Shown one piece after another: positions 26,664-46,363 of a DNA stretch of 64,000 nucleotides. Both the position numbers and the translations under genes were made by a program. The stretch lies in the NCBI RefSeq assembly GCF_024281035.1, contig NZ_JAMXLH010000032.1:30764-94763 (forward strand). The letters are read 5' to 3'. Origin of the DNA: Paraburkholderia sp. (GTDB lineage Bacteria; Pseudomonadota; Gammaproteobacteria; Burkholderiales; Burkholderiaceae). Within the stretch, counting starts at the first letter, position 1. Each line of letters starts with the position of its first letter. The notes below the pieces were generated by a model. The model was given only the letters and a program-made list of their open reading frames with translations. It was not told the origin of the DNA and ran no database searches.

Positions 26664-29249
26664 TTACATCGTCACGCTGTCGGCAACCTGCTTGAAATCT
26701 TCGATCTGGTCGAAGTTCATGTATTGATAGATCTTGTCGCCATCGGCGTTGATCACGCCCATGTCGGTCATGTACTCGTCCTTGGTCGGGATCTTGCCGA
26801 GGCGCGAGCAGATTGCCGCCAGTTCCGCCGAGCCGAGGTACACGTTCGTGTTTTTGCCAAGGCGGTTCGGGAAGTTGCGGGTCGACGTCGACATGACCGT
26901 CGCGCCTTCGCGCACCTGTGCCTGGTTGCCCATGCACAGCGAGCAGCCCGGCATTTCGGTGCGCGCACCAGCCGTGCCGAACACGCCGTAATGGCCTTCC
27001 GCGGTCAGCTGCTTCTGGTCCATCTTGGTCGGCGGGGCCACCCACAGCTTGACCGGGATGTCGCGCTTGCCTTCCAGCAGCTTCGATGCGGCGCGGAAGT
27101 GACCGATGTTGGTCATGCACGAACCGATGAACACTTCGTCGATCTTGACACCGGCGACATCGGAGAGCGTCTTCACGTCGTCCGGATCGTTCGGGCAGGC
27201 GACGATCGGCTCATGGACGTCGGCGAGGTCGATCTCGATGACGGCGGCGTACTCGGCGTCGGCATCCGGCGACAGCAGTTGCGGGTTGGCCAGCCACTGC
27301 TCCATCGCCTTGATGCGGCGCTGCAGGGTGCGCGCGTCCTGGTAGCCGTCGGCGATCATGCACTTCAGCAGCGTGATGTTGCTGTTGAGGTACTCGATGA
27401 TCGGTTCCTTGTTCAGGCGCACCGAGCAACCGGCGGCCGAACGCTCGGCGGACGCATCCGACAATTCGAACGCTTGCTCGACCTTCAGATCGGGCAGGCC
27501 TTCGATTTCGAGAATGCGGCCCGAGAAGATGTTCTTCTTGCCTTGCTTGGCAACGGTCAGCATGCCTTGCTTGATGGCGTACAGCGGGATGGCGTTGACG
27601 AGGTCACGCAGGGTCACGCCCGGCTGCATCTTGCCCTTGAAGCGGACCAGCACCGATTCCGGCATGTCCAGCGGCATCGTGCCGGTGGCGGCTGCGAAGG
27701 CGACCAGGCCCGAACCGGCCGGGAAGCTGATGCCGATCGGGAAGCGCGTGTGCGAGTCGCCGCCGGTGCCGACGGTGTCGGGCAGCAGCATGCGGTTCAG
27801 CCACGAGTGGATCACGCCGTCGCCCGGGCGCAGCGCAACGCCGCCACGGGTGCTGATGAAGTTCGGCAGGGTCTGGTGCGTCTTCACGTCCACCGGCTTC
27901 GGATAGGCGGCGGTGTGGCAGAACGACTGCATGACGAGGTCGGCCGAGAAGCCGAGGCACGCCAGATCCTTGAGTTCGTCGCGGGTCATCGGGCCCGTGG
28001 TGTCCTGCGAGCCGACCGAGGTCATCTTCGGTTCGCAGTACGTGCCCGGGCGCACGCCCTGGCCTTCCGGCAGACCGCAGGCGCGGCCAACCATCTTCTG
28101 GGCCAGCGAGAAGCCCTTGCCCGTGTCGGCCGGCTGCTGCGGCAGGCGGAACAGCGTCGACGGCGCGAGACCCAGCGCTTCACGCGCCTTGGCGGTCAGG
28201 CCGCGGCCGATGATCAGCGGAATGCGGCCGCCGGCGCGCACTTCGTCGAACAGCACGTCGGACTTGACCTGGAACTCCGAGATCACTTCGCCGTTCTTCA
28301 GCGCCTTGCCTTCGTACGGGCGCAGTTCGACGACGTCGCCCATTTCCATCTTCGACACGTCGAGTTCGATCGGCAGGGCGCCGGCGTCTTCCATCGTGTT
28401 GTAGAAGATCGGGGCGATCTTGCCGCCGAGGCACACGCCGCCAAAGCGCTTGTTCGGGATGAAGGGGATGTCTTCACCCGTGAACCACAGCACCGAGTTG
28501 GTGGCCGATTTGCGCGAGGAGCCGGTGCCGACCACGTCGCCCACGTAGGCGACCAGGTTGCCCTTTTTCTTCAGCGATTCGATGAACTTGACCGGGCCGC
28601 GCTTGCCGTCTTCTTCCGGGGTGATACCGGGACGGGCGTTCTTCAGCATCGCCAGCGCGTGCATCGGGATGTCCGGGCGGGTGGTGGCGTCCGGGGCCGG
28701 CGACAGGTCGTCGGTGTTGGTTTCGCCCGTCACCTTGAAGACGGTGATGGTCAGGCTTTGCGGCACTTCCGGACGGCTGGTGAACCATTCGGCGTCGGCC
28801 CAGCTTTGCAGCACGGCCTTCGCGTTCGCGTTGCCCTGGTCGGCCAGTTCCTTGACGTCGTGGAACTGATCGAACATCAGCAGGGTTTTCTTCAGCGCGT
28901 CGGCGGCGACGGTGCCCACTTCGGCGTCGGACAGCAGCCCGATCAGCGGCTGGATGTTGAAGCCGCCCAGCATCGTGCCGAGCAGTTCGGTGGCGCGGGT
29001 GCGCGAGATCAGCGCGCAGGCGGTTTCGCCTTTGGCCACGGCGGCCAGGAAGCCGGCCTTCACGCGGGCGGCTTCGTCCACGCCGGCGGGCACGCGGTGG
29101 GTGATCAGGTCGAGCAGCGTCTGCTCTTCGCCCGCGGGCGGATTGGTCAACAGTTCCACCAGCTCGGCGGTTTGCTGAGCCGTCAGCGGCAGGGGGGGAA
29201 TACCGAGCGCGGCGCGAGCGGCCACGTGAGCACGAAAGTTTTCAAGCAT
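26664..29249 (-). CDS. acnB: Aconitate hydratase B / 2-methylisocitrate dehydratase
   Basis: 861 aa with [43 protein letters not shown] and [11 protein letters not shown]. Confidence 0.97.
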
Positions 29250-29361: not shown

Positions 29362-29380
29362 TCTTATATCTTATATAAGA
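29362..29380. promoter_or_regulatory. TCTTATATCTTATATAAGA operator, probable SdhR (GntR/HutC) site
   Basis: Contains the palindrome TCTTATATAAGA plus a direct half-repeat just upstream of the acnB -35. It differs by one base from the betaproteobacterial TCA-regulator SdhR motif as I recall it (TCTTATGTCTTATATAAGA). Confidence 0.65.
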
Positions 29381-29689
29381 GTTGGAAAATAAAACCGTTG
29401 GAAATCATGGCTGTAAAGACGGGGACGGATTTTTCATGCGCGGTCTGGCTGGCGCGTGGGGTGTGAGCTGCGCTCGGTGGGTTCGAAGGCGCCTGTAAGG
29501 TGGGCGAGGCGCTCGGGGGAAGCAGAGGGCGTGGCTGGCGGTATGGACGTTCCGGTTCCGGTATGTCGCGCCGCGAAGTCGCTAGCCGGCTTCGAGTCGT
29601 GCTGCTGAAACAGGCTGCACATATTGGTTGGCCGGGGTGCCGAAAGTGAACTTGCCTGAGGCTTGTGCACGCGCAATAGAAACGGCTGT

Positions 29690-29878
29690 GTCCATCGACG
29701 GCGTAGCGGCATTGTTCGCATGCGCTCCGCGTACTTTTCTTGCGTTGGCAAACAGTGCGCCCGCGAGTTTCGTCTTCGTGAGGCCGGGAAGCAGAGCATT
29801 CACACGGATGCCAAGGGATTCGCATCCCTTGGCAAACGCCCTGGTCATGTTGACGACCGCAGCTTTCGTAATCGAATT
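29690..29878 (-). pseudogene. Truncated, frameshifted short-chain dehydrogenase remnant
   Basis: *NSITKAAVVNMTRAFAKGCESLGIRVNALLPGLTKTKLAGALF, then a frameshift into ...EKYAERMRTMPLRR. The N-terminal half and the catalytic Tyr are missing. Confidence 0.75.
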
Positions 29879-29882
29879 TCAA

Positions 29883-30977
29883 TTAGAACGAGTGACGGAT
29901 ACCGGCAGAGGCAGCGACAGTGGTGCCACTCACGCCGACCAGATTGCCGTTTTCCATCGTGGGGCCGATATGTTCATCGCCATGGTTGCTAACCACAGCA
30001 ACTTCGCCATAAACGGAAGTCCGTTTCGAGAGGTCGTAGCTCACGCTGCCCGACGCTTGAAACGTATGACTATTCGAATGATCGGGATCCAGAATCCAGG
30101 AGATCGTTCCATTCGTGGTGACGAAAGGTGTTATCTCCCACGCCGCACCCACGTTGTAGACGTCGTTCTTGCCACTCGCATTTGCCAGCAGGTCACCACG
30201 GAATGTCGTGTAGTTGGCATACACGCGCACCTTGTCGAAACCGTACGACGCGCCGATGGTTTTCGCGATGACAGGTTGAGTAAAGATGAAATTGGGATTG
30301 CTTTCCTCCGTACCGCTCGCCTCAACCTGATCGAGCGCACCGGCCACGATCTTCAGGCCGCCGATTTCATACGTGAGCATCCCGGAATAGCAGAAACCTT
30401 GCCGGAAATCGCCTGCGTGTCCGCCGAGACAGGTCATGACAACGCCCTTCAGTCCATGGATTTCAGGGCTGCGGTATTCGAAGGCGTTCGGTGAGAACGT
30501 ACCCGAGATGTTGTTCGCGCTGTACAGCGTAACCAGCGTGCCAATCTGTTGAAACCCACGCGGATCCAGTTCGAACATTGCTTCTTCGAAGGGCGAGAAC
30601 TGCACACCTGCCCGTACTTCACCGAGGGGGCCGCTGACGCCGACCCAGGATTGGCGACCGAAGAAGCTACCAGCCAGATTGTTGTCGAAGCCACCGTTTG
30701 CGAGGCTGATGCCGCTTTCGAGCTTGAAGTTGGCTTTGTAGCCGCCACCCAGATCCTCGTGACCCTCGATGCCCCATTTGGATGGCAGGTAGCTACTGTT
30801 CACGAACGATACCGTGGCACCCGCATTCCGACCATTTGCGCCCGGGGTTTTGCTCGTGTACATAATGCCCGCATCCAGCATCCCATACAGCGTGACACTG
30901 CCTTGTGCATGCGCTGAAGCAACCAGACCAATACCACTTGCGAGAAGCGCAAAACCGTTTTTCGCGGCTTTATTCAT
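29883..30977 (-). CDS. Gram-negative trimeric porin (Burkholderia OmpC-like)
   Basis: Signal peptide (ASAHA), SVTLYGMLDAGI, S.WG..G.EDLGGG.KA.FKLESG, and a C-terminal YDLSKRT...GIRHSF. Confidence 0.93.
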   Translation of the reverse strand: MNKAAKNGFALLASGIGLVASAHAQGSVTLYGMLDAGIMYTSKTPGANGRNAGATVSFVNSSYLPSKWGIEGHEDLGGGYKANFKLESGISLANGGFDNNLAGSFFGRQSWVGVSGPLGEVRAGVQFSPFEEAMFELDPRGFQQIGTLVTLYSANNISGTFSPNAFEYRSPEIHGLKGVVMTCLGGHAGDFRQGFCYSGMLTYEIGGLKIVAGALDQVEASGTEESNPNFIFTQPVIAKTIGASYGFDKVRVYANYTTFRGDLLANASGKNDVYNVGAAWEITPFVTTNGTISWILDPDHSNSHTFQASGSVSYDLSKRTSVYGEVAVVSNHGDEHIGPTMENGNLVGVSGTTVAASAGIRHSF

Positions 30978-31134
30978 GACGTCTCCATTTATTGTGTACT
31001 GCTTATTTTGAAATTCTATATTGAATCTTTACCGCGACAGCATTGGATCGGAACAGATTTGATTACGGAATCAATCCTGATGTGCTAACTCAATCAAACT
31101 GCCGACTGCTCGAGCAGCGGCTTACCGTACTTCA

Positions 31135-32436
31135 TTAGTCAGTGAGAGAACAGCCGTTCGTTTCCTTCATGCGCCAAACCGTGACCAACGTAATGAACGA
31201 ACCAGCCGACACATAGATCAGGAAATAGTTGTCGAGGTGCATCGATTGCAGCCACGTCATCAGGAACGGTGTCGTGCCACCGAGAACGGCAATAACGATA
31301 TTGATCGGAAGACCAATGCCGACCGTGCGAATTTCCGTTTTGAACATTTCCGACAACGTTGCGGGAACGATAGACGAGAAAAGTGCATACAATACGAGGC
31401 CGAAGAGCTCAATACCGGCAATCGACCAGAACGTGGGTTGGACCGAGAGCACGACTGGGTACAGGAATACCGTATAGCAGGCTGCGCAGAAAAGCATCTG
31501 GGGACGGCGGCCAATCCTGTCCGAGAGCATGCCGAAAAACGGATGCACCGCCGTGTAGATCAGGAGCGAAAACGAACTCGCGGCATACGCAATGGAAGGC
31601 GTGGCACCTGCACGTTGAATTGCATAGACGGGAACATAGACCGCGAACAGATAAAACGCAAACGTTCCACAAATGCAGATACCGATAAGCGTAAGTACCT
31701 GTTTCCGGTGATTCGTGAACAGTTCACGAAGAGAACCCATTTTTCGTTTGCCCGCAGCCCGCGCTTCTTCGAAGATCCGGGTTTCGGCCACATTGCGACG
31801 CAACCACCAGGCGTAGATGCCGCTGATTGCCGCGATAACAAACGGAATACGCCATCCGAAGGCCATCATTTGATCGTGGGTCAATACTCCATTAAGCAGC
31901 CACACGATACCGGACGCGCACATGAGACCAATACCTGTCCCGAAGAACAGGAAGCTGCCGTGGAGCCCTCGTTTATTCGAGGGTGCTGTTTCACCCAGGA
32001 AGGTAATGGCGGCTGCGAATTCGCCCCCAGTGGAAAGCCCCTGGAGAAGACGTGCAATCGTTGCGACAATCGGGGCGGCAAACCCGATTTGATTGTAAGT
32101 CGGCACGACCGCGAGCAGCAGCGAACCGAAGGCCATCAGTTGCACGGAAAGGGAAAGGGCAGAGCGTCGCCCGCGACGGTCCGCCAGTACACCGAGCAAC
32201 CAGCCGCCCAGAGGACGCATCACGAAACCGAGCGCGTAAACGCCAAAGGCGGCGAGTAGCTTTGCGCCTTTGCTGTCGCCCGGAAAGAGTTGACCACTGA
32301 AGAAGATTGCGAGATTCGCGTATATCGAGAAGTCAAACCACTCGATACCGTGTCCGATGCAACCTGCGATTCGACTGCGTAACACACCGGCCAGGTTTTT
32401 TTCATCCCTTTCGATGTGCGAAAAAGACTGTTCCAT
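31135..32436 (-). CDS. MFS metabolite:H+ symporter (MHS family)
   Basis: Contains IEWFDFSIY, FVMRPLGG, DRRGRR, QGLSTGGE, WRIPF and DRIGRR. The ATG at 32436 has a GGAGA RBS. Confidence 0.93.
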   Translation of the reverse strand: MEQSFSHIERDEKNLAGVLRSRIAGCIGHGIEWFDFSIYANLAIFFSGQLFPGDSKGAKLLAAFGVYALGFVMRPLGGWLLGVLADRRGRRSALSLSVQLMAFGSLLLAVVPTYNQIGFAAPIVATIARLLQGLSTGGEFAAAITFLGETAPSNKRGLHGSFLFFGTGIGLMCASGIVWLLNGVLTHDQMMAFGWRIPFVIAAISGIYAWWLRRNVAETRIFEEARAAGKRKMGSLRELFTNHRKQVLTLIGICICGTFAFYLFAVYVPVYAIQRAGATPSIAYAASSFSLLIYTAVHPFFGMLSDRIGRRPQMLFCAACYTVFLYPVVLSVQPTFWSIAGIELFGLVLYALFSSIVPATLSEMFKTEIRTVGIGLPINIVIAVLGGTTPFLMTWLQSMHLDNYFLIYVSAGSFITLVTVWRMKETNGCSLTD

Positions 32437-32560
32437 ATTGTCTCCACCATCTTGTTTCTGATGCGTTAAATAATATGTTTCCAGGTGCTCCGGGCGACAA
32501 AAAGGGCAATGCAAACTGCGGGCGGAAAGCAAAGGTCTTTGCTTTCCGCCGGTAATGAAA

Positions 32561-33472
32561 TTACATACCGATCAAATCGGCACGCTCTACCAGATTGCGC
32601 ACAATACGAACAGACGCAATATCGATCATCTTGCCTTCGTATTGCACAGCGCCGAGACCCTGTGCCAGTGCCTCGTCGTAGGCCTTGATCATGTCCCGGG
32701 CACGATCGACATCTTCCTGCAGCGGTGAAAACACTTCTTGCGCGAGCGAAACCTGCGCCGGATGGATCGCCCATTTGCCGACCATGCCCAGCGTCATCGC
32801 ACGACGTGCTTCCTCGCGATAGCGGTCCGGATTCTTGAAGTCCGCGTACGGGCCATCCACCGCATCGATCTTGTTCGAACGGGCAGCGATGGTCAGACGA
32901 TGGCGCTGGTAGTGCCAGATGTCGCCCGGATAGCCACCGTCGCCGCCGATGTCGCGCATCGACACGCCCTGGCTTGCCGAATAGTCGCCCATGCCGAAGA
33001 TCAGGCATTCGAGGCGCGGAGTCGAAGCCGCAATCGCTTCAACGTTCTGCATGGCCTCGACTTCTTCGATCAGCACGTCAATGCCGATACGCTTCTTGAG
33101 CCCGAGTTTCTTTTCCATCATGGTCAGCAGCTTGTCCACGAACTGGACATCCGAGGCAGACATCGCCTTGGGCAGCATGATCATGTCGAGGTTTTCACGT
33201 GCACCCTCGACCACTTCGATGATGTCCTCGTATGCGTATTCCGTGGTCAGATCGTTCACACGGACACAGCGGACCGTGCGACCCCAGTCGAGCGTATTGA
33301 GCGCGGTCACGATCTTTTGACGAGCGGGGCGCTTTTCCGAGGGAGCGACCGCATCCTCCAGATCGAGGAAGACATAATCGACGCTCATGGCCGAAGCTTT
33401 GGCCATCATCTTTTCGCTCGAACCCGGGACCGACAGCTGGCACCGGCGCAGGCGCCTGATCTTTTCCGACAT
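32561..33472 (-). CDS. CitE/HpcH-family CoA-ester lyase, Mcl1-like (malyl-CoA/beta-methylmalyl-CoA lyase type)
   Basis: RRCQLSVPGS...DLEDAVAP...LDWG...VRVN...IMLPK; FGMGDYSASQG; DGPYADF...LGMVGKWAIHP.QV.LA.EVF.P. Confidence 0.85.
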   Translation of the reverse strand: MSEKIRRLRRCQLSVPGSSEKMMAKASAMSVDYVFLDLEDAVAPSEKRPARQKIVTALNTLDWGRTVRCVRVNDLTTEYAYEDIIEVVEGARENLDMIMLPKAMSASDVQFVDKLLTMMEKKLGLKKRIGIDVLIEEVEAMQNVEAIAASTPRLECLIFGMGDYSASQGVSMRDIGGDGGYPGDIWHYQRHRLTIAARSNKIDAVDGPYADFKNPDRYREEARRAMTLGMVGKWAIHPAQVSLAQEVFSPLQEDVDRARDMIKAYDEALAQGLGAVQYEGKMIDIASVRIVRNLVERADLIGM

Positions 33473-33490
33473 AACTATCTCCTTAGACTT

Positions 33491-34738
33491 TTAACGCTGC
33501 TCCACTACATTGTTTTTACGCAACTCTGCAATCTCCGATTCGTGCAATCCCAAATCGCGTAACACGCGTTCCGTATGTTCACCGACCAACGGTGCACGTT
33601 TCCGGATGCCGCCCGGTGTATCGCTCATATGGACAGGCGTACCCGCGATCACGAGCTTTTCATTCGCGCCCGGTTGTTCCGTCTCAACCAGCATATTTCG
33701 GATCTGGAAGTGCTCATCCTCGAAAATGTCTTTGGCTTCGAATACGGGACCAAATGGAATGTGCCCGCCGAAGATTTCAGACAATTGACGCTTGGTCCGT
33801 ACCAGAGTCCACGCATTCAACAACTCTTCGAGTTCGCCGCTATTGGCGACCCGTAAATCATTAGTTGAAAACTTGTCCTGCATGATCCATTCAGGACGAC
33901 CCATGCACTCGACCATCTTTGCCCAGAAATTGTCATTCGGCACGCCGAGGCTGATATAACCATCAAGCGCCTGGAATAAACCGAACGGACAGAGCAGGGG
34001 ATGACCATTGCCTTCACGGCCGGGCGATTTTTTGCCCACGCCGTACTGGAACACGATACGTTCGCAGATAGCCAAAATGGAGTCGGTCATGCCGACATCG
34101 ACAAATTGCCCCTTGCCGGTCCGTTGTACGGACCAGCAGGCAGCAGTAATGCCGAATGCGAGAAACATTGCGGGGCCGATGTCACCAATGCCGGGACCAA
34201 TCTTGGTCGGCGGTCCATGACGCACATGGCCCGTAATGCCCATGATGCCGCCCATCGCTTGCGAAACAGGATCATAGGCGGGCCAATCGAGATACTGACT
34301 GGCGCCGGAACGTCGGTCACCAAAACCTCTGAGTGCGCCATAGACCAGACGTGGATTGATTTCACTCAGACGCTCGTAACTCAGACCCAGACGTTCCATC
34401 ACGCCTGAGCGGTAATTTTCGATTACCACGTCCGCGCGTTGGACCAGACGCAAGAAGAGGGCACGTCCTTTATCGCTTTTCAGGTCAATGACCAGCGATT
34501 CCTTATTCCGGTTCGTAGAACCGAAATATCCGCCGAAACCACCTTGTTCGAGCTTTAGAGCCCCCTCCAGATGGGGGCCATTGCGACGTGTTTTGTCGCC
34601 ACCCGGCGGTTCGATCTTGATAACGCGTGCACCCTGGTCTGCCAGCATCATTGTGCAGTAGGGTCCAGCAAGCATAGCCGTCAGGTCCAGTACGATCAGA
34701 CCATCAAGCGCGCCACGCCCTGCGGACCCCGTACTCAT
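33491..34738 (-). CDS. CaiB/BaiF family III CoA-transferase
   Basis: LDLTAMLAGPYCTMMLADQGARVIKIEPP.GD, NRNKES, ENYRSG and YDPVSQAMGG (catalytic Asp). Confidence 0.93.
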   Translation of the reverse strand: MSTGSAGRGALDGLIVLDLTAMLAGPYCTMMLADQGARVIKIEPPGGDKTRRNGPHLEGALKLEQGGFGGYFGSTNRNKESLVIDLKSDKGRALFLRLVQRADVVIENYRSGVMERLGLSYERLSEINPRLVYGALRGFGDRRSGASQYLDWPAYDPVSQAMGGIMGITGHVRHGPPTKIGPGIGDIGPAMFLAFGITAACWSVQRTGKGQFVDVGMTDSILAICERIVFQYGVGKKSPGREGNGHPLLCPFGLFQALDGYISLGVPNDNFWAKMVECMGRPEWIMQDKFSTNDLRVANSGELEELLNAWTLVRTKRQLSEIFGGHIPFGPVFEAKDIFEDEHFQIRNMLVETEQPGANEKLVIAGTPVHMSDTPGGIRKRAPLVGEHTERVLRDLGLHESEIAELRKNNVVEQR

Positions 34739-35232
34739 TGCTTCACCCAGTGGGACTTGCGTTTGATCAGGGCCGTGCGCTCAGCCTGAACGCATAGCTT
34801 GTCGTGCTGGTTGATGCCATAGTGCTTGAAGCGGACGATACCTGCGTCTTCGCGGTCCGAATCTTCCTTGCCCAGCACTTCGGTGAACGCATACAGCGTG
34901 TCGCCATGCAGCACAGGCGTGGTCAGGCGGATCTTGTCGAGCGCGATTTCCCCGATGCACTGCTCTGCCGTGTCTTGAGCAGCGAGACCCAGGACCATCG
35001 ACAGATTGATGCCCCCGAATACCACGCGCTGGTTGACGAATGCGCCCGGATTCCTGTTCATCACGTCTTCGTTGAAATGGCCTTCCGCCGTATTCATCAC
35101 CATATTGGTGATCAGTACGTTGTCCATTTCGGTAACGGTTTTGCCCCGGGCATGACGGATCAGCATTCCGGGCTCGAAGTCCTCGAAATAACCGTCTTCG
35201 CTCGTGATAGGCGTATTGGCATTCGCGCTCAT
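34735..35232 (-). CDS. MaoC-family (R)-specific hydratase subunit
   Basis: YFEDFEPG...HARGKTVTE.DN...NTAEGHFN...RVVFGG...PVLHGDTL, a hot-dog fold pattern. Confidence 0.88.
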   Translation of the reverse strand: MSANANTPITSEDGYFEDFEPGMLIRHARGKTVTEMDNVLITNMVMNTAEGHFNEDVMNRNPGAFVNQRVVFGGINLSMVLGLAAQDTAEQCIGEIALDKIRLTTPVLHGDTLYAFTEVLGKEDSDREDAGIVRFKHYGINQHDKLCVQAERTALIKRKSHWVKQ

Positions 35233-36476
35233 GCATGTTCTCCCTTGAGGCCCTTTGCTTCCTGGTACTTCTGGAATGCGCGTTCAGCGATCATGCCCTC
35301 GACTTCCGACTTGCCGAGCAGGTTGGTCGCGATGATGCGCTGCTGGATTTCCGACGTGCCTTCGAAAATCTTGGTCAGGCGAGCATCGCGCCAGTAGCGT
35401 TCAATCGGGAACAGCTTCGTATAGCCGGCGCCGCCAAAAATCTGCAATGCTTCGGAGGTCACGCGTTCAGCCATTTCCGTGGCGAAGTACTTCACCATCG
35501 AGGCTTCCTTGTCGCAACGCCGGCCACTGTCGATTTCGTTGCACACGTAGTAGAGCAGCTGGCGCGCGGCCTCGATCTCGGTGGCCATCGTCGCGATCTT
35601 GAAACGGAGTGACTGATATTCGGCGATGGGCAAACCGAATTGCTTGCGCTGGGTAGCGTATTCGATGGAATCTTCGAGTGCGCCTTGCGCGAGCCCGATG
35701 CCGCGAGCAGCCGTATGCGCACGTGCGACTTCCAGACCCTTTGCCATGACGAGGAACGCCTTGCCGGGCTCACCGAGCAGGTTTTCCTTCGGCACACGCA
35801 CGCCGTCGAGCGCGAGTTCGAATGTGTTCCAGCCGAAGTAGCCGATCTTGGGAATCTTGTTGCCGGTCATGCCCTTCGGGAAAGAACCGCGCTCTTTCTC
35901 GATCATGAAGCACGAAATGCCTTCCCAGCGCTTGCTCGCCGACGAAGGATGGCCGGTCCGCGCGAACACAGCCAGGTAGTCGGCGCCGTCTGCAAACGTG
36001 CACCAGTACTTGTTGCCGGTCAGCACCCATTCGTCGCCTTCCAGCACCGCACGGCACGAAATCGACGCCAGATCCGAGCCCGTATCCGGTTCCGACAAGG
36101 CGCTTGCATTCAGGAATTCACCGGCAACGACACGCGGCATGTATTGCTTGAGCCGTGCTTCGTCCATCGTCTTCATGAGCCAGCCGCCTTGTGCGCGAGC
36201 CAGGATCGAAGCCACGGACATCCAGCCACGGGCCAACTGTTCCGCGACCAGACAGTATTCGAATGCGCCCATGCCGAGACCGCCATATTCTTCGGGCAAC
36301 ATGATGCCGAAATAGCCCATTTCAGCCATCTTCCGGCGCAGTTCCATCGGGATTTCACCATCCGGGCCATCGAGCTTGTTGGCCACGGGCAGCACTTCTT
36401 TCATGGTGAATGCACGCGCAGCATCGCGAATCATGATGCGCTCTTCGGTCATGTAACCTTTGCCGTCATTCGACAT
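35229..36476 (-). CDS. Acyl-CoA dehydrogenase
   Basis: Contains ALSEPDTGSD, GNKYWCT, KQFG.PI..YQ, ALQIFGGAGY and RDARLTKIFEGTSEIQ. Confidence 0.95.
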   Translation of the reverse strand: MSNDGKGYMTEERIMIRDAARAFTMKEVLPVANKLDGPDGEIPMELRRKMAEMGYFGIMLPEEYGGLGMGAFEYCLVAEQLARGWMSVASILARAQGGWLMKTMDEARLKQYMPRVVAGEFLNASALSEPDTGSDLASISCRAVLEGDEWVLTGNKYWCTFADGADYLAVFARTGHPSSASKRWEGISCFMIEKERGSFPKGMTGNKIPKIGYFGWNTFELALDGVRVPKENLLGEPGKAFLVMAKGLEVARAHTAARGIGLAQGALEDSIEYATQRKQFGLPIAEYQSLRFKIATMATEIEAARQLLYYVCNEIDSGRRCDKEASMVKYFATEMAERVTSEALQIFGGAGYTKLFPIERYWRDARLTKIFEGTSEIQQRIIATNLLGKSEVEGMIAERAFQKYQEAKGLKGEHA

Positions 36477-36478
36477 AT

Positions 36479-36979
36479 TTAGCCTCGCGTGCGAACCAGA
36501 TTGGAACGTTTGAACTCGATAACAAGTTCGCCGTCTTGATTGAAACCCTTCGTGTGCCAGGTGGTGATGCCAAATCCCGGCTTGTTGCTGGGCAGGCGCT
36601 TATCCACGACAGCTGACTCGGAATACAGCGTGTCACCCGGATAAACCGGCTTCAGATATTTCAGTTCATCCACGCCCAGGAACGGGCCGCCACCTTCCGA
36701 CAGGTCCTCCACGGACAGGCCGAATACCGTGTTGAACACGAGTAGCGGGTTGACAGGAATACCCGGATAGCCGTTGGCTTTCGCGGCTTGCACGTTGGTG
36801 TATTGCGGGTTGTAATGCATCGTCAGGATCGAAAACAGCGTATTGTCAGATTCGCTGACCGTGCGCCCCCAGTGGTGTTTGAATTCACGGCCGGGCTCAA
36901 AATCTTCATAGCGATTGCCGCGACTGCGCAATACGGCATTCGCCTTCAGATGGGCAACCACCGATTCATTAGTTGTCAT
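36479..36979 (-). CDS. MaoC-family hydratase subunit
   Basis: GNRYEDFEPG..F.HHWGRTVSE.DN..F...T.H.NP...PVYPGDTLY. Confidence 0.88.
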   Translation of the reverse strand: MTTNESVVAHLKANAVLRSRGNRYEDFEPGREFKHHWGRTVSESDNTLFSILTMHYNPQYTNVQAAKANGYPGIPVNPLLVFNTVFGLSVEDLSEGGGPFLGVDELKYLKPVYPGDTLYSESAVVDKRLPSNKPGFGITTWHTKGFNQDGELVIEFKRSNLVRTRG

Positions 36980-38337
36980 CGAATAGCCTCAAATAAAGGG
37001 TCTACGGTAGAAAGCTGGTCCATGGTTTCCAGTACGGCGATCAGGCGTCCAAACCTAAGTGCGCCGATGTGCGGGACGACTAGTGCCTGTGCCTTGGTAA
37101 CGAGCAGATTCCACTGCTTCGTAAGGTCGGTGGCCGGGATGCCGACGTTCGCCTCTTCACGAATCGTGCGGCCATCGACGGTTCGAATTTCGACAAGGGC
37201 ACCGTTGCGGCCTGCTTCAGGCGAGGTAATCAAAGTGACTTTGCGACGTGCGGCTACATAGCGCGGATTGCGCGCCGTTTCGTCCGTAAACAGTTGCAGC
37301 GACGCAGTAGGCTGACCGTCGAGTGCCATTGCCACGAGCTGCTGGATCGCGAACTTGACTTCGAGGCCGGTATTCGGTTCTGCGATGTCGCAGACGCCAC
37401 GTTGTGCGCCACCGACAGTGATCGTCATCGACTCCAGCGAAGCGAGGCCGATCTCATGTTTCCGACGTGCCTGATTCACCGCCTCGATGGCGGAATGCGT
37501 CAGGTAGCAAGCGGCGTGGAACTTGAACAGGGTGCGTTCGATGCCCGTCGCGGCGCTTGCTTCGAACGTGGCGGGGAAGACCGGGGTCTCCCCGGTCTGT
37601 GTCGGGCCGAAGCCTTGCGCGCACTCGATGGCGTTCGGGTTGGCAGTAAAGCCCTTCGATGCAAGGCGTGCCGCCATCACACCATTCATCGCTGCTTTGC
37701 CCGCGTGCAGCGGCTTAGCCATCGTGCCGAACATGCTCTTGAGGCCTGCGGCCTGTGTTGAGGCCAGACCCAGGGCAATGGCTGTCTGATCTGCATCGAG
37801 GCCCATCAACGAAGCCGCCGCCGCTGCAGCGCCCAGCGTGCCAGTCGTGCCCGTGGGGTGCAGGCCCAGACGGTACTGGCTATCGCCCACGACTTGACCG
37901 ATGCGGCCTTCGACTTCGTGGCCGACGATGATCGCTTTCAGGAGTGCTTTGCCGCTCGACTTTTGTGCCTGGGCAACCGCGAGCGCAGCAGGTGCAACAG
38001 GAACGGTAGGATGGCCGTGCATCTGCGAGTTCACATCATCGAAGTCGAGTGCGTGGCCTGCTGCACCATTAATCAGTGCGGCGCTCAGGACGCTCGTCTG
38101 AAGGGGGCTAACCAGAAGTGAGCAGGAACTCTCCAGAGTCGCGCCATACTCGCCAGTGAGGATTTTCACCAGCGGTTCCTCAGATGCGGCGACAGTGACT
38201 GCCACCCAGTCGAGCAGGGCATGCCGCGCCCATGCAAAGGCATTTTCGCCAGGCATCGATTCGTTGACGCTGCTAATCCAGGTCGCGATGGCACGCGTAT
38301 ACCCGAAGGGCCGACCGTCTTTTGGGCCTTGTTCCAT
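36976..38337 (-). CDS. MmgE/PrpD-family protein
   Basis: AALINGAAGHALDFDD...GHP, GLHPTGT, K.LHAG.AA..G..AA.LA..GF and KFHAAC..TH. The ATG at 38337 has a GAAGGAG RBS. Confidence 0.92.
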   Translation of the reverse strand: MEQGPKDGRPFGYTRAIATWISSVNESMPGENAFAWARHALLDWVAVTVAASEEPLVKILTGEYGATLESSCSLLVSPLQTSVLSAALINGAAGHALDFDDVNSQMHGHPTVPVAPAALAVAQAQKSSGKALLKAIIVGHEVEGRIGQVVGDSQYRLGLHPTGTTGTLGAAAAAASLMGLDADQTAIALGLASTQAAGLKSMFGTMAKPLHAGKAAMNGVMAARLASKGFTANPNAIECAQGFGPTQTGETPVFPATFEASAATGIERTLFKFHAACYLTHSAIEAVNQARRKHEIGLASLESMTITVGGAQRGVCDIAEPNTGLEVKFAIQQLVAMALDGQPTASLQLFTDETARNPRYVAARRKVTLITSPEAGRNGALVEIRTVDGRTIREEANVGIPATDLTKQWNLLVTKAQALVVPHIGALRFGRLIAVLETMDQLSTVDPLFEAIR

Positions 38338-38380
38338 GTCTCCTTCCTTTTCATGTGGTGCAGCAGTTGTTGTGACGAGT

Positions 38381-38456
38381 ATCAAATGCCGATTTGATCG
38401 CCTGTATCACATACGTGATAAGTGCACGGGCGTGCAAAACTAATCACATATGTGAT
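38381..38456. promoter_or_regulatory. Cluster of palindromic operators in the divergent promoter region
   Basis: ATCAAAT-GCCG-ATTTGAT (38381-98), TATCAC-ATAC-GTGATA (38405-20), TGCAC-GGGC-GTGCA (38423-36) and ATCACATATGTGAT (38443-56). Confidence 0.7.
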
Positions 38457-38522
38457 GGTCGGAGCGCTTGTCGTGGCTGAAACTGTTCCCGGCCCCCTCT
38501 TTTCAACTACATCACGACGATC

Positions 38523-39413
38523 ATGGAAAATTGCCTGCCCCGCCGTTCGGTGCTTTATGTTCCCGGTGTTAATACCCGAGCCATTGAAAAGGCGCGTGCA
38601 ATTGCATGCGATGTAATCATTTTCGACTGGGAGGATGCGGTTGCACCTTCCATGAAGAGTGCTGCCCGGAAAACTGTTGCCGACGCCTTTGGCACCGGCA
38701 CTTTTCTGGCCCGGGAAAAAATCATCCGTATCAATAGTCTGGGTACGCGTGAGTTTGAGGCGGACTTGCAAGCCGCTGTCGCCTGTGGGCCTGATGCGAT
38801 TTTGCTGCCCAAGGTCAACAGTGCGCACGATATTCAGCGCTACGCATACGCCAGGCGTCAGTTGAAGAGAGAGGACAATACGGCGCTCTGGATCATGGTT
38901 GAAACGGCTGCCGCTATTTCGAATTTAAATTCGATTATTGAGGTGGCGCCCGGGGCGGGTATCAAGCTCGGTTGTCTGGTGCTGGGAACGAATGACCTGG
39001 CGAAGGAAACGGGCGTCTCTACGGCCAACGGTCGCCAATACTTCATTCCGTGGCTCATGTCGATTGTTCTCACCGCCAGGATGAATAACGTCACGGTAGT
39101 GGACGGCGTATGGAATGACTTCCGTAATACGGAGGGATTCGATACCGAAGCACGCCAGTCCCTGGAAATGGGTTTCGATGGTAAGACGCTGATCCATCCG
39201 TTGCAGGTTGCTCCAGCTAATGCAGTGTTCACGCCCAGCGACGAAGCTGTTGCTGATGCAAAGAAAATCATCGCCGCATTTGACCGTCCGGAGTATGCGA
39301 CGGCGGGCGTCATCGATCTTGACGGTCGCATGGTCGAGCGCCTGCACCTCGAACAGGCGCAGCGTCTGATTGCCCGGATGGAAGCGATCACGACCCAGCC
39401 CCAGACTGCATGA
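38523..39413 (+). CDS. Second CitE/HpcH-family enzyme, Mcl2-like ((3S)-malyl-CoA thioesterase type)
   Basis: RRSVLYVPG.N.RAIEKA..IACD.IIFDWEDAVAP, IRIN, LLPKV, LGTNDL, DGVWNDF and GFDGKTLIHP.Q. Confidence 0.82.
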   Translation: MENCLPRRSVLYVPGVNTRAIEKARAIACDVIIFDWEDAVAPSMKSAARKTVADAFGTGTFLAREKIIRINSLGTREFEADLQAAVACGPDAILLPKVNSAHDIQRYAYARRQLKREDNTALWIMVETAAAISNLNSIIEVAPGAGIKLGCLVLGTNDLAKETGVSTANGRQYFIPWLMSIVLTARMNNVTVVDGVWNDFRNTEGFDTEARQSLEMGFDGKTLIHPLQVAPANAVFTPSDEAVADAKKIIAAFDRPEYATAGVIDLDGRMVERLHLEQAQRLIARMEAITTQPQTA

Positions 39414-39527
39414 GGCTGGCAGGTTAGTGCGGCAGGGCGTGTCTCAGGGCACACCCTTTCTCGATTTCTACCGCTGATTCCCCCAATAGATGGGGCGCGA
39501 AATCCAGGCTATCCTGGAGGGAAGCCT

Positions 39528-40298
39528 ATGTGGCGCGTTATTGCGCGAGAAAACACCGTGGATGACAGCAAATCCGTAAAGTCAGCTACCCGAGTATTCG
39601 ATATTCTCGAACTATTCGAACAGGAGCGTCGGCCTTTGCGTGTAGGCGAGATTGCCGAGCGGCTGGGAATTCCACAGTCCAGTGCTTCCGTGTTACTCAA
39701 GACGATGGCATTCAGGGGATACGCGGAGTATGACGCACAGCGCCATACATACTGCCCGTCAATACGTGTCGCGTTTCTATGCGACTGGGCGGCCCGCAAA
39801 GAAAGTGTGCACACCTCCGTTCATGAAGTTCTCAGAAAACTCGCACGAGAAACTGGCGAAACCGTACTGCTTGCACGCCAAAGCGGTATACGCCTGCAAT
39901 ATCTTTCCGTACTCGATGCGCCCTCGACATCGCGAATTTCTGCCGCATCCGGATTAATGCGCCCAATGCACATGACGGCCATTGGGATCATGCTGCTTAG
40001 CCGTATGCAAGACGATCAGATTATGAGGCTATTGCGACGTTACAATGCCGAATGTGAATCGCACGAGCCGCCAGCCAAAATTGATCAAGTTTTGGCCGCT
40101 ACTGAGCGCGCACGTAACCAGGGCTATTACGAATCCGCAAGTCTTGCGACGCCCGGTTCGGGAGTTATCGCAGCAGTTATGGTGACGCCAATTCGGGATA
40201 AACTGCTTGGCATTGGAATTGGTGGCCCTGTTGCGCGCTTACATGAACACCGTGAAAGACTTGTCGCTGCTGTAACCGATACGGCGCAAGAATTTTAA
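39528..40298 (+). CDS. IclR-family transcriptional regulator
   Basis: SVKSATRVFDILELF...EIAERLGIPQSSAS.LLKT, ETGETV.L, MHMTAIG and GIGIGGP. Confidence 0.92.
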   Translation: MWRVIARENTVDDSKSVKSATRVFDILELFEQERRPLRVGEIAERLGIPQSSASVLLKTMAFRGYAEYDAQRHTYCPSIRVAFLCDWAARKESVHTSVHEVLRKLARETGETVLLARQSGIRLQYLSVLDAPSTSRISAASGLMRPMHMTAIGIMLLSRMQDDQIMRLLRRYNAECESHEPPAKIDQVLAATERARNQGYYESASLATPGSGVIAAVMVTPIRDKLLGIGIGGPVARLHEHRERLVAAVTDTAQEF

Positions 40299-40943: not shown

Positions 40944-41045
40944 GTGAGTTCTACATACATAGAATTTTATTTGGCTGTGCCGTGTTCTCGCTCCAATACT
41001 GCGTGTACGCCCATGAAAATGGGCGACTACAACATGGAGACATTA

Positions 41046-42362
41046 ATGAGTACGCAGGCGCAGCCAGAAATGGTCGAGGTTCTGGGTATACCGGCCACGA
41101 CCGCAACAGACCGCACATCCAGGTCGATCAGGGCAGCAACTATCGGCAGCATTATCGAGACCTACGACTGGATGATTTATACAACCTTCGCAGTATATTT
41201 TGCGAAGCAGTTTTTCCCATCCGAGAATTCAACCGCTTCGATTCTCGCGGCGTTCGCAGTCTTTGCCATCGGATTTTTCGCGCGGCCCATTGGTGGATGG
41301 CTGCTGGGGGCGTTTGCGGATCGGGCTGGGCGTCGGCGAGGCATGATGATCGGTGTTTGGGCAATGTCGGCCTCATCGTTCATCATTGCGATTCTGCCCA
41401 CCTACGCGTCTATCGGCATCGCCGCTCCAATCCTGATGACTTTGGCGCGCGTGCTCCAGGGCCTGTCAGTGGGCGGCGAATATGCGACCGCAACTCTGTT
41501 TCTTGCGGAATCGGCACCGACCCATAAACGCGGTTATTACTCCAGTTTCCAGTTTTTAAGTGTGGCTGGCGGCATTCTTCTGGCTTCTGGTTTAGCTCTC
41601 GTTCTTACACACGTACTGACGAAAGAAGAGATCGAAGCCTGGGGCTGGCGTATCCCATTCGTGCTCGGAGGTTTCAGTGCACTGATTGGCGTCTACATGC
41701 GTAGTCGTATGGAAGAAACAGCGGCATTTGAAACCGCCCGCAGGGAAGGACGGGTACAGAAGCGCTCACCCATCTGGTGTTGGGTGAATTACCCGCGAGC
41801 CACATTTCGTCTTATTGGGGTGACTATTCTCGGCGCGTTCTCCTTTTACATTTTCGTCAGCTACATCCCGGTCTACGCGATTCATCAGAAGCATGCGGAT
41901 CCGGGCACTACGTTCGCTGCCGGGACTGTCTGCATGGTGATTTTCATGATCATGCAGCCTCTGTTTGGCGCACTATCGGATCGAATTGGTCGTTGTCCTC
42001 AACTGATCGTGTTCTCACTCGGTTATCTGATTTTTCTGTATCCGGTTGTGAACTCCATTCACGCCAGCTTCATGTCGATTCTGTCGGTCGAATTGTTCGG
42101 CATGCTGCTCTATGGTCTCTATACCGCAGTTGCCCCAGCAGTTATGGTTGAACTCTTCCCCACGGAAGTGCGCGGCGTCGGCATTGGCTCAACCTATAAC
42201 CTGATCGTGGCATTGCTGGGTGGAACGACGCCCTATCTAATGACGATAGCGAATCAGTCTAACAATACCCGCTGGTTTATTGCCTACGTGTGTTTGGGTG
42301 CCTTCCTTAGCCTGATTACGTATATCAGGATGCCCGAAACCCGGGGTATCGACCTGCACTAA
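41046..42362 (+). CDS. Second MHS-family MFS transporter
   Basis: Contains IETYDWMIY, FFARPIGG, DRAGRR, QGLSVGGE and WRIPF. The ATG at 41046 has a GGAGA RBS. Confidence 0.92.
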   Translation: MSTQAQPEMVEVLGIPATTATDRTSRSIRAATIGSIIETYDWMIYTTFAVYFAKQFFPSENSTASILAAFAVFAIGFFARPIGGWLLGAFADRAGRRRGMMIGVWAMSASSFIIAILPTYASIGIAAPILMTLARVLQGLSVGGEYATATLFLAESAPTHKRGYYSSFQFLSVAGGILLASGLALVLTHVLTKEEIEAWGWRIPFVLGGFSALIGVYMRSRMEETAAFETARREGRVQKRSPIWCWVNYPRATFRLIGVTILGAFSFYIFVSYIPVYAIHQKHADPGTTFAAGTVCMVIFMIMQPLFGALSDRIGRCPQLIVFSLGYLIFLYPVVNSIHASFMSILSVELFGMLLYGLYTAVAPAVMVELFPTEVRGVGIGSTYNLIVALLGGTTPYLMTIANQSNNTRWFIAYVCLGAFLSLITYIRMPETRGIDLH

Positions 42363-42436
42363 AACCAGTTGATCCGGGAAGGCCATTCGAAATCGGCTTT
42401 TTCGGTTTGGTTAACGGCTTGACTACGGAGGAGGAA

Positions 42437-43318
42437 ATGACAGTAATGGACGAGCAGCTTGTTGAGACCCCAGCCTGGTTTCTTGACGCGATCAGGGCGC
42501 CGAAGGTCTCGCGTTATGTAAACGTCGAGGGTGCGGTCATTCACTATCAGGCGTGGAATGAAGGGGATTGGGATAAACCTGCTTTGCTGTTCGTGCACGG
42601 GTTCTGTGCGCACGCAAAGTGGTGGGACTTTATCGCTCCCGCGTTCTTGAACACACATCGCGTGTATGCCATGGACCTGTCAGGCATGGGTGATTCTGAG
42701 AGCCGCATCCACTACGTCCATGAAGTCTGGAGCAAAGACATCGTGGAAGTTGCTCGAGCGGTCGGCAACGGCCAGAAGGTGGCAGTCGCCGGTCATAGTT
42801 TTGGTGGTTCACGTTCTACTGAAGCTGTTGCCCAACATCCCGAATTGTTCTCCCAACTCGTGATCCTTGATTCGTACTTCTACCTGGCAGAAGGCGAGGA
42901 ATCACGTCGAAAACGGAACGTTCCTCCTAAAGGCGGTGAACGGATTTACGATACGTTCGAAATCGCATATTCACGATTTCGTTTCACTCCAGATCAATCC
43001 ACGCTTCCCTTTATCTACGAATACATTGGGCGCAACTCTATCCGTCAAAGGGGCGATCAGTGGGGATGGAAATTCGATAATGAAATCCTGGGTTTCACCC
43101 ATCATGATCTCGACCACTCGACTTCCCTAAAGTCAGTGCAGGTACCCGTATCGCTAATCCACGCCGAGCATTCGACCGTCGCCTCCCACTCCCTCGTCCA
43201 GCGCATTGCGGATACGGTGCCCCAATGTAAGGCCAAGATTATGATCTCGGGTGCTCAGCATCACATCATGTGTGATAAGCCACTCGAATTGATCGAGGCT
43301 CTCAAATCGGTGCTGTGA
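42437..43318 (+). CDS. Alpha/beta hydrolase (esterase-like)
   Basis: Contains FVHGFCAH, DLSGMGDS, GHSFGG and AQHHIM. GGAGGAGG RBS. Confidence 0.9.
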   Translation: MTVMDEQLVETPAWFLDAIRAPKVSRYVNVEGAVIHYQAWNEGDWDKPALLFVHGFCAHAKWWDFIAPAFLNTHRVYAMDLSGMGDSESRIHYVHEVWSKDIVEVARAVGNGQKVAVAGHSFGGSRSTEAVAQHPELFSQLVILDSYFYLAEGEESRRKRNVPPKGGERIYDTFEIAYSRFRFTPDQSTLPFIYEYIGRNSIRQRGDQWGWKFDNEILGFTHHDLDHSTSLKSVQVPVSLIHAEHSTVASHSLVQRIADTVPQCKAKIMISGAQHHIMCDKPLELIEALKSVL

Positions 43319-43329
43319 CAGTGCGTCGA

Positions 43330-43520
43330 TAGCATGGCATCCAGAATGAGCGGGTACAGTTCTCTTACGATATAGCGCTTCGGGCAGCGGTGAATTTCCT
43401 TGTTCGACATGCCTTCCCTGGTTCGTCGCTCGACGTACGCCCGGGTTCCCGGATCACTGCGCATTTGCACCATCGCAATGGTTCACAGGGTTTTGTTTGT
43501 CGCGGTCGCCTCCACGGTTC
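43330..43520 (-). mobile_element. IS110-family transposase C-terminal remnant
   Basis: GGDR, then a frameshift into ...NKTL*TIAMVQMRSDPGTRAYVERRTREGMSNKEIHRCPKRYIVRELYPLIL. This matches IS110 C-termini of the form ANxALWTIAMVRMRxDPRTRxYVxRRxxEG.SxKEIxRCLKRY; Trp has become TGA. Confidence 0.78.
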
Positions 43521-44147
43521 AGGCGATGTCGGACTGTTTTGCCGGAGGCTGATTCAGCTCGAACTGAATTGGAGCTTCGCTCTTACTCGTCTGCTTGACT
43601 GTGCAGTGTCCGATTCGGCAGGCAGCTGTCGAACTCAACTCATCTCCACTCGACTGTGGGCAAGTCGGTCAGGCTGCATCGTCTCCGACCTGCCGGCAAT
43701 CAGCGTCGCCTCGCGCGGGTGGGTGAAAATATTTATGAATCGACGAATTGCGCCAGCTTTCGTTGGGCCAGATATTGTTTGCGAGCGGTGATTCCCGGGC
43801 CAGGTTTGTTTGCAACGCATTTGACTAAGTGATTGATTCTTCTGAGGTGGTGTTTGCGCTCGGCGTGCGGCGGTCATTCAGATGGGCGTTGGTAATTTGT
43901 TCCTTGGCGCGAGATGGGGGAGCGGCGAAGCAAAAATTTGCGCGCAATTCCCTGTGGGATAAGGGGTTGGCCGTAGCTGTCGATTTTTCACGACAGTTTT
44001 GATTGCAAGGAACTGGCTAGGACAACATCGTTTGCAACAGGACAGGAATCGTTTGTCACCCACCACCACCACCAGTCCGCCGCTCTCCGCAACACTTCAC
44101 AACACAAGTGCTAACATTTGTTGTCGCCACCTCCCAATGACGCCCGC

Positions 44148-45187: not shown

Positions 45188-45273
45188 TTTTCCGCGTGGA
45201 CCAGGGCGGTTTCGCCGCGAGACGTTTCCCATTGGAAAGTCCCGGCGCGGCCCCGAACGAAGCGAGAATCCCC

Positions 45274-46320: not shown

Positions 46321-46363
46321 ACGACAGCGCGCGTCACGCTCCATTTCGCAAAGAGGGAACCTC

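Follow-up and report, generated by a model that had tools for sequence, protein, structure and literature searches.

Predicted catabolic operon for a chiral 2-substituted succinate on a low-GC island of a Paraburkholderia genome

What does a bacterium degrade with an operon that joins a coenzyme A (CoA) transferase, an acyl-CoA dehydrogenase (ACAD), hydratase-like and lyase-like proteins, a transporter and a porin, and by which chemistry? We addressed this question for a 64-kb window of a Paraburkholderia genome (contig NZ_JAMXLH010000032.1, positions 30,764 to 94,763; "the window" is this whole stretch, and all coordinates are window positions unless stated), in which open reading frame (ORF) calls together with Pfam and NCBIfam scans define the gene set. 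A minus-strand operon encodes, in order, a PrpD-like protein, a MaoC protein, an ACAD, a second MaoC protein, a family-III CoA-transferase, a CitE-like protein (CitE1), a transporter of the metabolite:H+ symporter (MHS) family and a porin; a second CitE-like gene (CitE2) and an IclR regulator are transcribed divergently from it on the plus strand. On balance, we favor the view that the low-GC island carrying these genes specifies a full catabolic route, with a regulator of its own, for a chiral 2-substituted succinate that would be processed as the C1-CoA ester, the thioester being formed on the carboxyl adjacent to the substituent; methylsuccinate is the leading candidate substrate.

Composition and conservation of the operon

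The operon, the divergent genes and the region between them comprise the following features:

29883-30977, minus strand: Gram-negative porin, 3'-terminal gene of the operon (Porin_4, 152 bits)
31135-32532, minus strand: MHS-family transporter of the MFS superfamily (TIGR00883, 354.6 bits)
32561-33472, minus strand: CitE1, an HpcH/CitE-like, predicted Mcl-1-like lyase (268 and 258 bits against 5UGR and 4L9Y)
33491-34738, minus strand: family-III CoA-transferase (PF02515, 408 bits)
34735-35232, minus strand: MaoC protein with a single hot-dog domain, equivalent to the C-terminal half of Mch (PF19315 positions 221-353)
35229-36476, minus strand: ACAD of the Mcd (C1-ester) type (best solved relative PdMCD, 6ES9)
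36479-36979, minus strand: MaoC protein with a single hot-dog domain, equivalent to the N-terminal half of Mch (PF19315 positions 13-167)
36976-38385, minus strand: MmgE/PrpD-family protein, predicted epimerase/isomerase (Pfam MmgE_PrpD_N and MmgE_PrpD_C)
38407-38418 and 38444-38455, no strand: two copies of the palindrome TCACATAYGTGA, predicted IclR operator (motif counts and conservation)
38523-39413, plus strand: CitE2, an Mcl-2-like CitE protein (groups with a Paracoccaceae CitE protein encoded beside mch)
39528-40298, plus strand: IclR-family regulator (HTH_IclR and IclR_C domains)

Successive junctions of the operon, in the direction of transcription, measure -4, +2, -4, -4, +18, +28 and +157 nt. 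The initial annotation had described this gene order, the tight junctions and the divergent CitE-like and IclR genes, all of which the ORF calls and family scans confirm; to these we add the equivalence of the two MaoC genes to the halves of Mch, the extent of the low-GC island, and the paired palindromes. The PrpD-like gene probably starts at the ATG at 38337, and the MHS gene likely at the ATG at 32436. The MHS transporter, which also matches KgtP-like and TcuC-like models, is predicted to take up the acid.

A scan with the PrpD-like protein, taking one genome per species, returned 80 loci, in about 30 of which (about 30 species) the order PrpD-like, MaoC, ACAD, MaoC, transferase, CitE1 is identical. 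Since this six-enzyme order recurs in at least eight genera, the grouping is not a product of chance. The core loci belong to the Burkholderiales and a few Alphaproteobacteria, and are found in Paraburkholderia (76-96% protein identity), Cupriavidus, Polaromonas, Variovorax, Pseudorhodoferax, Hydrogenophaga, Xenophilus, Acuticoccus and Pararhodobacter. On the other side of the core, most loci carry CitE2, an IclR gene or both, with the IclR gene kept adjacent in most of them. The uptake genes vary, comprising an MHS transporter and porin in Paraburkholderia (where the porin likewise follows the MHS gene), a Bug/TTT binding protein in Cupriavidus and a TRAP system in Pararhodobacter and Polaromonas, and all cluster-adjacent transporters are of carboxylate types. 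That a CoA-transferase and a free-acid epimerase are joined by transporters, a porin and a local regulator of the IclR family marks this as a catabolic uptake operon. An exact-sequence lookup of CitE1 returned only two short metagenome contigs, which offer no further context.

Enzymes and predicted reactions

In the scheme that we propose, the acid would enter through the porin and the MHS symporter, and the PrpD-family protein would interconvert its enantiomers by a His/Tyr two-base mechanism. The family-III transferase would move CoA from succinyl-CoA to the carboxyl beside the substituent, the Mcd-like ACAD would form the substituted fumaryl-CoA, and a heteromeric hydratase made of the two MaoC proteins (a split Mch) would yield the beta-substituted malyl-CoA. 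CitE1 would cleave this ester to glyoxylate and an acyl-CoA; CitE2, with CitE1, would probably turn glyoxylate and acetyl-CoA into malate by way of malyl-CoA, and the IclR protein would control both divergent promoters through the paired palindromes. The order of intermediates (R-succinate, R-succinyl-CoA, R-fumaryl-CoA, beta-R-malyl-CoA, then glyoxylate plus acyl-CoA) had been put forward in the initial annotation, and it gains in silico support from the family relationships and active-site residues described below. The reactions of the operon are all known chemistry; we infer each of them from sequence and genomic context, and the same holds for which acid is the substrate, for the heteromer and for what CitE2 does.

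The regiochemistry of CoA activation is indicated by the transferase and the ACAD. The best NCBIfam match of the transferase is succinyl-CoA:mesaconate CoA-transferase (Mct; NF041294) at 435.7 bits, with the next family at 271; the score lies below the haloarchaeal equivalog cut-off of 700. Mct of Haloarcula forms the C1 ester only and uses methylsuccinate as efficiently as mesaconate (PMC5592240), and we predict the operon enzyme to be a succinyl-CoA:substituted-succinate CoA-transferase. The ACAD has as its best solved relative the (2S)-methylsuccinyl-CoA dehydrogenase PdMCD (6ES9, 298 bits), in which Arg252, Arg376 and Arg421 bind the free (terminal) carboxylate and Glu535 is catalytic (PMC5798300). 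The operon enzyme retains Arg252, Arg421 and Glu535, none of which varies among 24 orthologues, and Ser248 and Thr418 are also kept. The arginine pair is missing from the other top solved ACADs and from canonical C4-type dehydrogenases, which have Gly and Glu instead. The N-terminal extension of Mcd, which spans about 170 residues and replaces the tetramer interface, is absent from the operon enzyme (415 residues), which aligns with positions 167-550 of PdMCD only.

These signatures bear on whether the acid could instead be activated at C4. In that case the hydratase would yield (S)-citramalyl-CoA and the Mcl-like lyase would split it into acetyl-CoA and pyruvate, making the operon a non-orthologous replacement of the known route. 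There is enzymatic precedent for both steps, as the Mch-type hydratase of Haloarcula also hydrates mesaconyl-C4-CoA and the Mcl of Chloroflexus cleaves (S)-citramalyl-CoA (PMC5592240), and the two lyases at the locus could serve two regio-isomers. However, the ACAD bears the C1-specific arginine pair of Mcd where C4 dehydrogenases have Gly and Glu, and the transferase is closest to an enzyme that makes the C1 ester only. CitE1, for its part, scores 258-268 bits against the bifunctional Mcl-1 type and 143 bits against the Chloroflexus enzyme. Because of the ACAD and transferase signatures in particular, we regard C4 activation as distinctly unlikely and retain the C1-ester route.

Further points in favor of the proposed scheme come from the hydratase. 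The protein encoded at 36479-36979 has 8HGN and 4E3E (Mch) as its best solved relatives and conserves Phe71, Ser79 and Arg142 of MeMeaC; in the Methylorubrum extorquens structure, the Ser, Arg and Phe of Mch hold the malate/malyl carboxylate. The protein encoded at 34735-35232 contains the catalytic Asn226/His231 motif as NTAEGH, with Tyr248-Gly249 replaced by Phe-Gly. All members of the Mch active-site set (Asn226/His231 together with Ser79, Arg142 and Phe71) are therefore found, split over two proteins. In Mch itself, both hot-dog domains are fused into one polypeptide, which is not the arrangement here: the two genes flank the ACAD gene in every locus. We predict that the N-terminal-half protein is the substrate-carboxylate-binding subunit and the C-terminal-half protein the catalytic subunit, and we infer that the two jointly form one Mch-type active site in a heteromer.

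The initial annotation had judged the lyase to be Mcl-like rather than Ccl-like, and had called for a phylogeny to decide the matter; bit scores and the tree that we built both point that way. Among solved structures, CitE1 scores 268 bits against 5UGR and 258 bits against 4L9Y (the malyl-CoA/beta-methylmalyl-CoA lyases of M. extorquens and Rhodobacter sphaeroides), compared with 143 for the Chloroflexus enzyme (4L7Z/4L80), 131 for CLYBL, 112 for RipC and 57 for Rv2498c. Its motifs are intact (LDLEDAV, R-x-N, E and D-Y, KWAIHP and IDIAS). In the tree, CitE1 forms its own clade (100/100 support) adjoining Mcl-1, with canonical Ccl outside the clades of both CitE1 and CitE2, and in tblastn comparisons CitE1 shares 39-42% identity with Mcl-1-like genes of Paracoccaceae, which fall with 4L9Y in the tree. 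Neither CitE1 (169.7 bits) nor CitE2 (149 bits) passes the RipC/Ccl model NF038242, whose cut-off is 375. We therefore consider CitE1 a predicted Mcl-1-like, beta-substituted malyl-CoA lyase that would release glyoxylate and an acyl-CoA.

CitE2 is equidistant from two groups of solved enzymes (129 bits against Mcl, 128 against CLYBL). It is 43-46% identical to a Paracoccaceae CitE protein encoded beside a full-length mch, with which it groups at 99/98 support, and which is Mcl-2-like by genomic context; in R. sphaeroides and Paracoccus denitrificans, mcl-2 lies three locus tags from mch (PMC6747724). The predicted function of CitE2 is that of a malyl-CoA thioesterase or an auxiliary lyase.

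The remaining enzyme, the PrpD-like protein, has iminodisuccinate (IDS) epimerase (2HP0, 155 bits) as its nearest solved relative. The window protein has His85, Asp88, His99, Tyr145, His150, Lys198 and Lys266, and 32 orthologues keep all seven without change; they make up the full residue set of a His/Tyr two-base mechanism that has been proposed for IDS epimerase as well as for methylsuccinate isomerase (Msi; PMC12290011). Its clade is separate from that of Msi. We predict a two-base epimerase/isomerase acting on the free substituted succinate. As a separate matter, 2-methylcitrate dehydratase was considered for this protein and rejected, the scores being 32-34 bits against cut-offs of 458-950.

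Substrate and relation to known pathways

Is this operon then a copy of a known pathway? Two systems share much of its inventory. The canonical itaconate/methylsuccinate cluster (Pseudomonas aeruginosa PA0878-PA0883 and Cupriavidus necator), which encodes Ict, Ich, Ccl, Mcd-C4 and Msi and was characterized in 2025 (PMC12290011), likewise combines a free-acid epimerase of the MmgE/PrpD family with a succinyl-CoA-dependent transferase of family III, an ACAD, a hydratase of the MaoC type and a lyase of the CitE type. The lower ethylmalonyl-CoA pathway of Rhodobacter and Paracoccus (PMC6747724, PMC5798300) contains the closest characterized relatives of the ACAD, of the two hydratase halves and of CitE1 and CitE2, and the same predicted CoA-ester sequence, from methylsuccinyl-C1-CoA to glyoxylate and propionyl-CoA. 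The island could accordingly be read as a redundant itaconate cluster or a part of ethylmalonyl-CoA assimilation, and its gene inventory does superficially resemble both.

The parallel with the itaconate cluster, drawn in the initial annotation, survives as a shared logic and not as orthology. Operon-bearing Cupriavidus and P. unamae also hold the canonical ACAD-Ict-Msi-Ccl cluster, whose proteins are 29-32% identical to those of the operon and are thus co-existing paralogues: the PrpD-like protein is 30-32% identical to Msi and the ACAD 29% identical to the PA0879-type enzyme, with separate clades and different ACAD signatures. In contrast to the canonical cluster, the operon has a split, Mch-type hydratase, an ACAD with the C1-type arginine pair and an Mcl-type lyase; its epimerase falls in another clade, with Asp rather than Glu at position 88, and its regulator is of the IclR type rather than the LysR-type ItcR. 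The predicted products are glyoxylate and propionyl-CoA, as opposed to pyruvate and acetyl-CoA. The RipC/Ccl and RipB/Ich models are far under their cut-offs for the operon, and no RipC/Ccl-type lyase scores over the family cut-off in the host genome.

The parallel with the ethylmalonyl-CoA pathway fares better, as the closest characterized relatives of the enzymes (Mct, Mcd, Mch, Mcl-1 and Mcl-2) do belong to ethylmalonyl-CoA and methylaspartate modules. Compared with that pathway, the operon adds a transferase, an epimerase, transporters and its own regulator, and gathers genes that are scattered in Rhodobacter and Paracoccus; its ACAD is without the extension and Arg376, its Mch is divided between two genes flanking the ACAD, and its CitE1 is without the Mcl loop. 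Crotonyl-CoA carboxylase/reductase (Ccr) was not found in the host genome, the best match being 87 bits against a cut-off of 378, which argues against a role in acetate assimilation. Given the absence of both Ccr and a Ccl over the cut-off, and the traits of a catabolic uptake operon noted above, we consider it very improbable that the island is either a spare itaconate cluster or part of the ethylmalonyl-CoA pathway; a self-contained C1-ester route remains the preferred reading.

Two other systems show more partial likeness. The methylaspartate cycle of Haloarcula (Mct, Mch and Mcl; PMC5592240) supplies the best family model of the transferase; in contrast, the operon contains no glutamate mutase or methylaspartase and adds an ACAD and an epimerase. 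The Mycobacterium tuberculosis operon Rv2498c-Rv2504c (a CitE lyase, a MaoC hydratase, FadE19 and ScoAB; PMC6689899) is also a transferase/ACAD/MaoC/CitE operon acting on branched acyl-CoA esters, but it has a family I transferase and no PrpD-family protein, and serves leucine and itaconate catabolism. Our literature search on this gene combination, a catabolic beta-methylmalyl-CoA route, CoA-dependent tricarballylate metabolism and aerobic alkylsuccinate degradation found no published description of the operon, in keeping with the suggestion that it is uncharacterized.

The substrate had been left open in the initial annotation; methylsuccinate is now the leading candidate, given that four of the enzyme types suggest esters of methyl-branched C5 acids. 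On this substrate, the route would yield propionyl-CoA and glyoxylate, in parallel to the published C4-ester route, and mesaconate would enter after the transferase step.

Several observations weigh against the methylsuccinate route as we draw it. Every NCBIfam equivalog score is below its cut-off. The margin of the ACAD over generic short-chain ACADs is small (298 vs 279 bits), the third Mcd arginine, Arg376, is Phe in all 24 orthologues, and the pocket for the C2 branch differs (Ser283 to Asn, Ala285 to Ser and Phe287 to Leu). The stem of the CitE1 clade is long, at 1.27 changes per column, and the protein is without a loop of about 10-17 residues seen in Mcl structures. In Cupriavidus and P. 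unamae, where the canonical methylsuccinate cluster is in place already, a second route for this acid in the same cell is less parsimonious. Finally, a study of C. necator H16 (PMC13491972) reports no such cluster among the methylsuccinate-induced genes, and states that this strain has no lyase to complete the beta-methylmalyl-CoA route; H16 probably is without the operon, since no H16-like record appears among the matches at 66% identity.

The ACAD residues are the reason why the substituent may be other than methyl. Over the 24 orthologues, the signature reads Phe for Arg376, Leu for Phe287, and Ser or Ala for Ala285. An unlikely alternative, though one that deserves weight, is that the scheme is the same and the acid is another 2-substituted succinate: an ethyl- or other alkylsuccinate, a hydroxymethyl- or otherwise polar-substituted succinate, or tricarballylate, which would proceed via isocitryl-CoA to succinyl-CoA and glyoxylate. 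In that case, the acyl-CoA released would be one other than propionyl-CoA. A pocket more polar or roomier than that of Mcd (Asn283, Ser285, Leu287 and Phe376), fixed over the orthologues, would suit such an acid, as would the co-existence with the canonical methylsuccinate cluster and the rarity of the operon, which fits a specialized substrate (among 401 genomes drawn evenly from the order, 2 have a CitE1 orthologue, and among 24 of the same genus, none). The matches of the MHS transporters include TcuC, the model for the tricarballylate symporter, and a short-chain dehydrogenase/reductase (SDR) gene that follows the lyase gene in four loci could likewise be read in this direction. Conversely, the best characterized relatives of four of the five enzymes act on methyl-branched C5 CoA esters. 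Tricarballylate is further disfavored because it is achiral and has no need for a fully conserved two-base epimerase, and uptake through a porin and MHS, TTT or TRAP systems argues against long-chain alkylsuccinates. Methylsuccinate thus remains our leading candidate, with other 2-substituted succinates kept open in view of the altered ACAD pocket, the co-existing canonical route and the rarity of the operon.

A more far-reaching version of this alternative, which we put forward as a speculative proposal, is that the operon, rather than being a second methylsuccinate route, degrades a natural 2-substituted succinate for which no pathway is known. The acid would bear a polar or larger substituent, for which the fixed Asn283/Ser285/Leu287/Phe376 pocket would have room, and be degraded via an undescribed beta-substituted malyl-CoA to glyoxylate and an unusual acyl-CoA, with the Mcl-1-like and Mcl-2-like pair acting as a glyoxylate sink.

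Two observations from other genomes concern related gene arrangements. The SDR gene lies directly after the CitE1 orthologue in loci from Polaromonas, Acuticoccus and Pararhodobacter (at 15836-16618 in L013, 15744-16559 in L017, 15460-16497 in L030 and 15872-16726 in L037, in coordinates of those loci), and is not present in the window. An analogous P. unamae cluster (L098; G002:C56:1-13000) encodes a porin together with an MHS transporter 60% identical to that of the window, a PrpD-family paralogue at 31% identity and an ACAD at 27% identity, which suggests a family of PrpD-plus-ACAD modules serving different dicarboxylates.

Regulation, genomic island and implications

How the operon is controlled is suggested by the divergent intergenic region, in which the palindrome TCACATAYGTGA appears twice, spaced 37 bp apart, giving four strand-matches where 0.16 would be expected by chance. 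At least seven genera have loci with this motif in the corresponding position upstream of the PrpD-like gene, usually as two copies 35-47 bp apart. It was found nowhere else in the host genome, indicating a strictly local regulon. Most simply, the paired palindromes are the putative operator of the adjacent IclR regulator. A scan for consensus promoters and terminators returned counts at or below chance.

The operon and its divergent genes lie in a stretch of low GC content (0.50-0.60, compared with 0.63-0.68 in the rest of the window; about 10 points lower than in the host), whose remaining features and flanks are listed here:

26664-29249: acnB, flanking gene
~29250 to ~44000, no strand: low-GC island carrying the operon, the divergent genes and passengers (GC content)
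40944-42362, plus strand: second MHS transporter, an island passenger (TIGR00883, 375.6 bits; TcuC-like model, 275 bits)
42407-43318, plus strand: alpha/beta-fold hydrolase, an island passenger (weak matches to PcaD-like enol-lactonase and esterase models)
44118-45008: RpiR-family regulator, flanking gene

Horizontal acquisition, as proposed in the initial annotation, is supported by the GC content (0.57 vs 0.65) and by the absence of the operon from 24 congeners. In Cupriavidus, Variovorax and Hydrogenophaga, the GC content of the cluster equals that of the host, while it is 3-8 points lower in the window and in two Paraburkholderia loci. No tRNA gene, insertion sequence element, mobility gene or flanking repeat was found at the island ends. 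A comparison with congeners revealed no simple insertion site, the acnB and RpiR flanks being on different contigs or about 95 kb apart; as they are not neighbors in any congener checked, the region has been rearranged relative to these relatives.

In other genomes, neither the second MHS transporter nor the hydrolase turned up next to the cluster; the hydrolase could serve to free the acid from a precursor that is an ester or a lactone. The same part of the island (40944-43791) also holds a 133-residue ORF without a family, which is likewise no companion of the operon elsewhere. A 172-residue ORF (29364-29882) on the left border of the low-GC stretch, with no Pfam or NCBIfam match, may be spurious or an insertion remnant. 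To the right of the island, at 45196-47707, are a C45-family autoproteolytic acyltransferase/hydrolase and a class-III aminotransferase (PRK07483, 834 bits), whose ORF calls overlap.

If the proposed route is correct, bacteria would possess two non-orthologous CoA-dependent routes for branched C4/C5 dicarboxylates, one through C4 esters to acetyl-CoA plus pyruvate, the other through C1 esters to glyoxylate and propionyl-CoA, and Mcd, Mch, Mcl-1 and Mcl-2 would have relatives with a catabolic role that are assembled in a mobile operon. The PrpD-like protein would represent a second candidate epimerase subfamily within the poorly characterized MmgE/PrpD family. The minimized enzymes, an Mcd-like ACAD without the extension and a two-subunit Mch, may be of interest for the design of synthetic CO2-fixation cycles, and the defined putative IclR operator could find use in a biosensor once the inducer is known.

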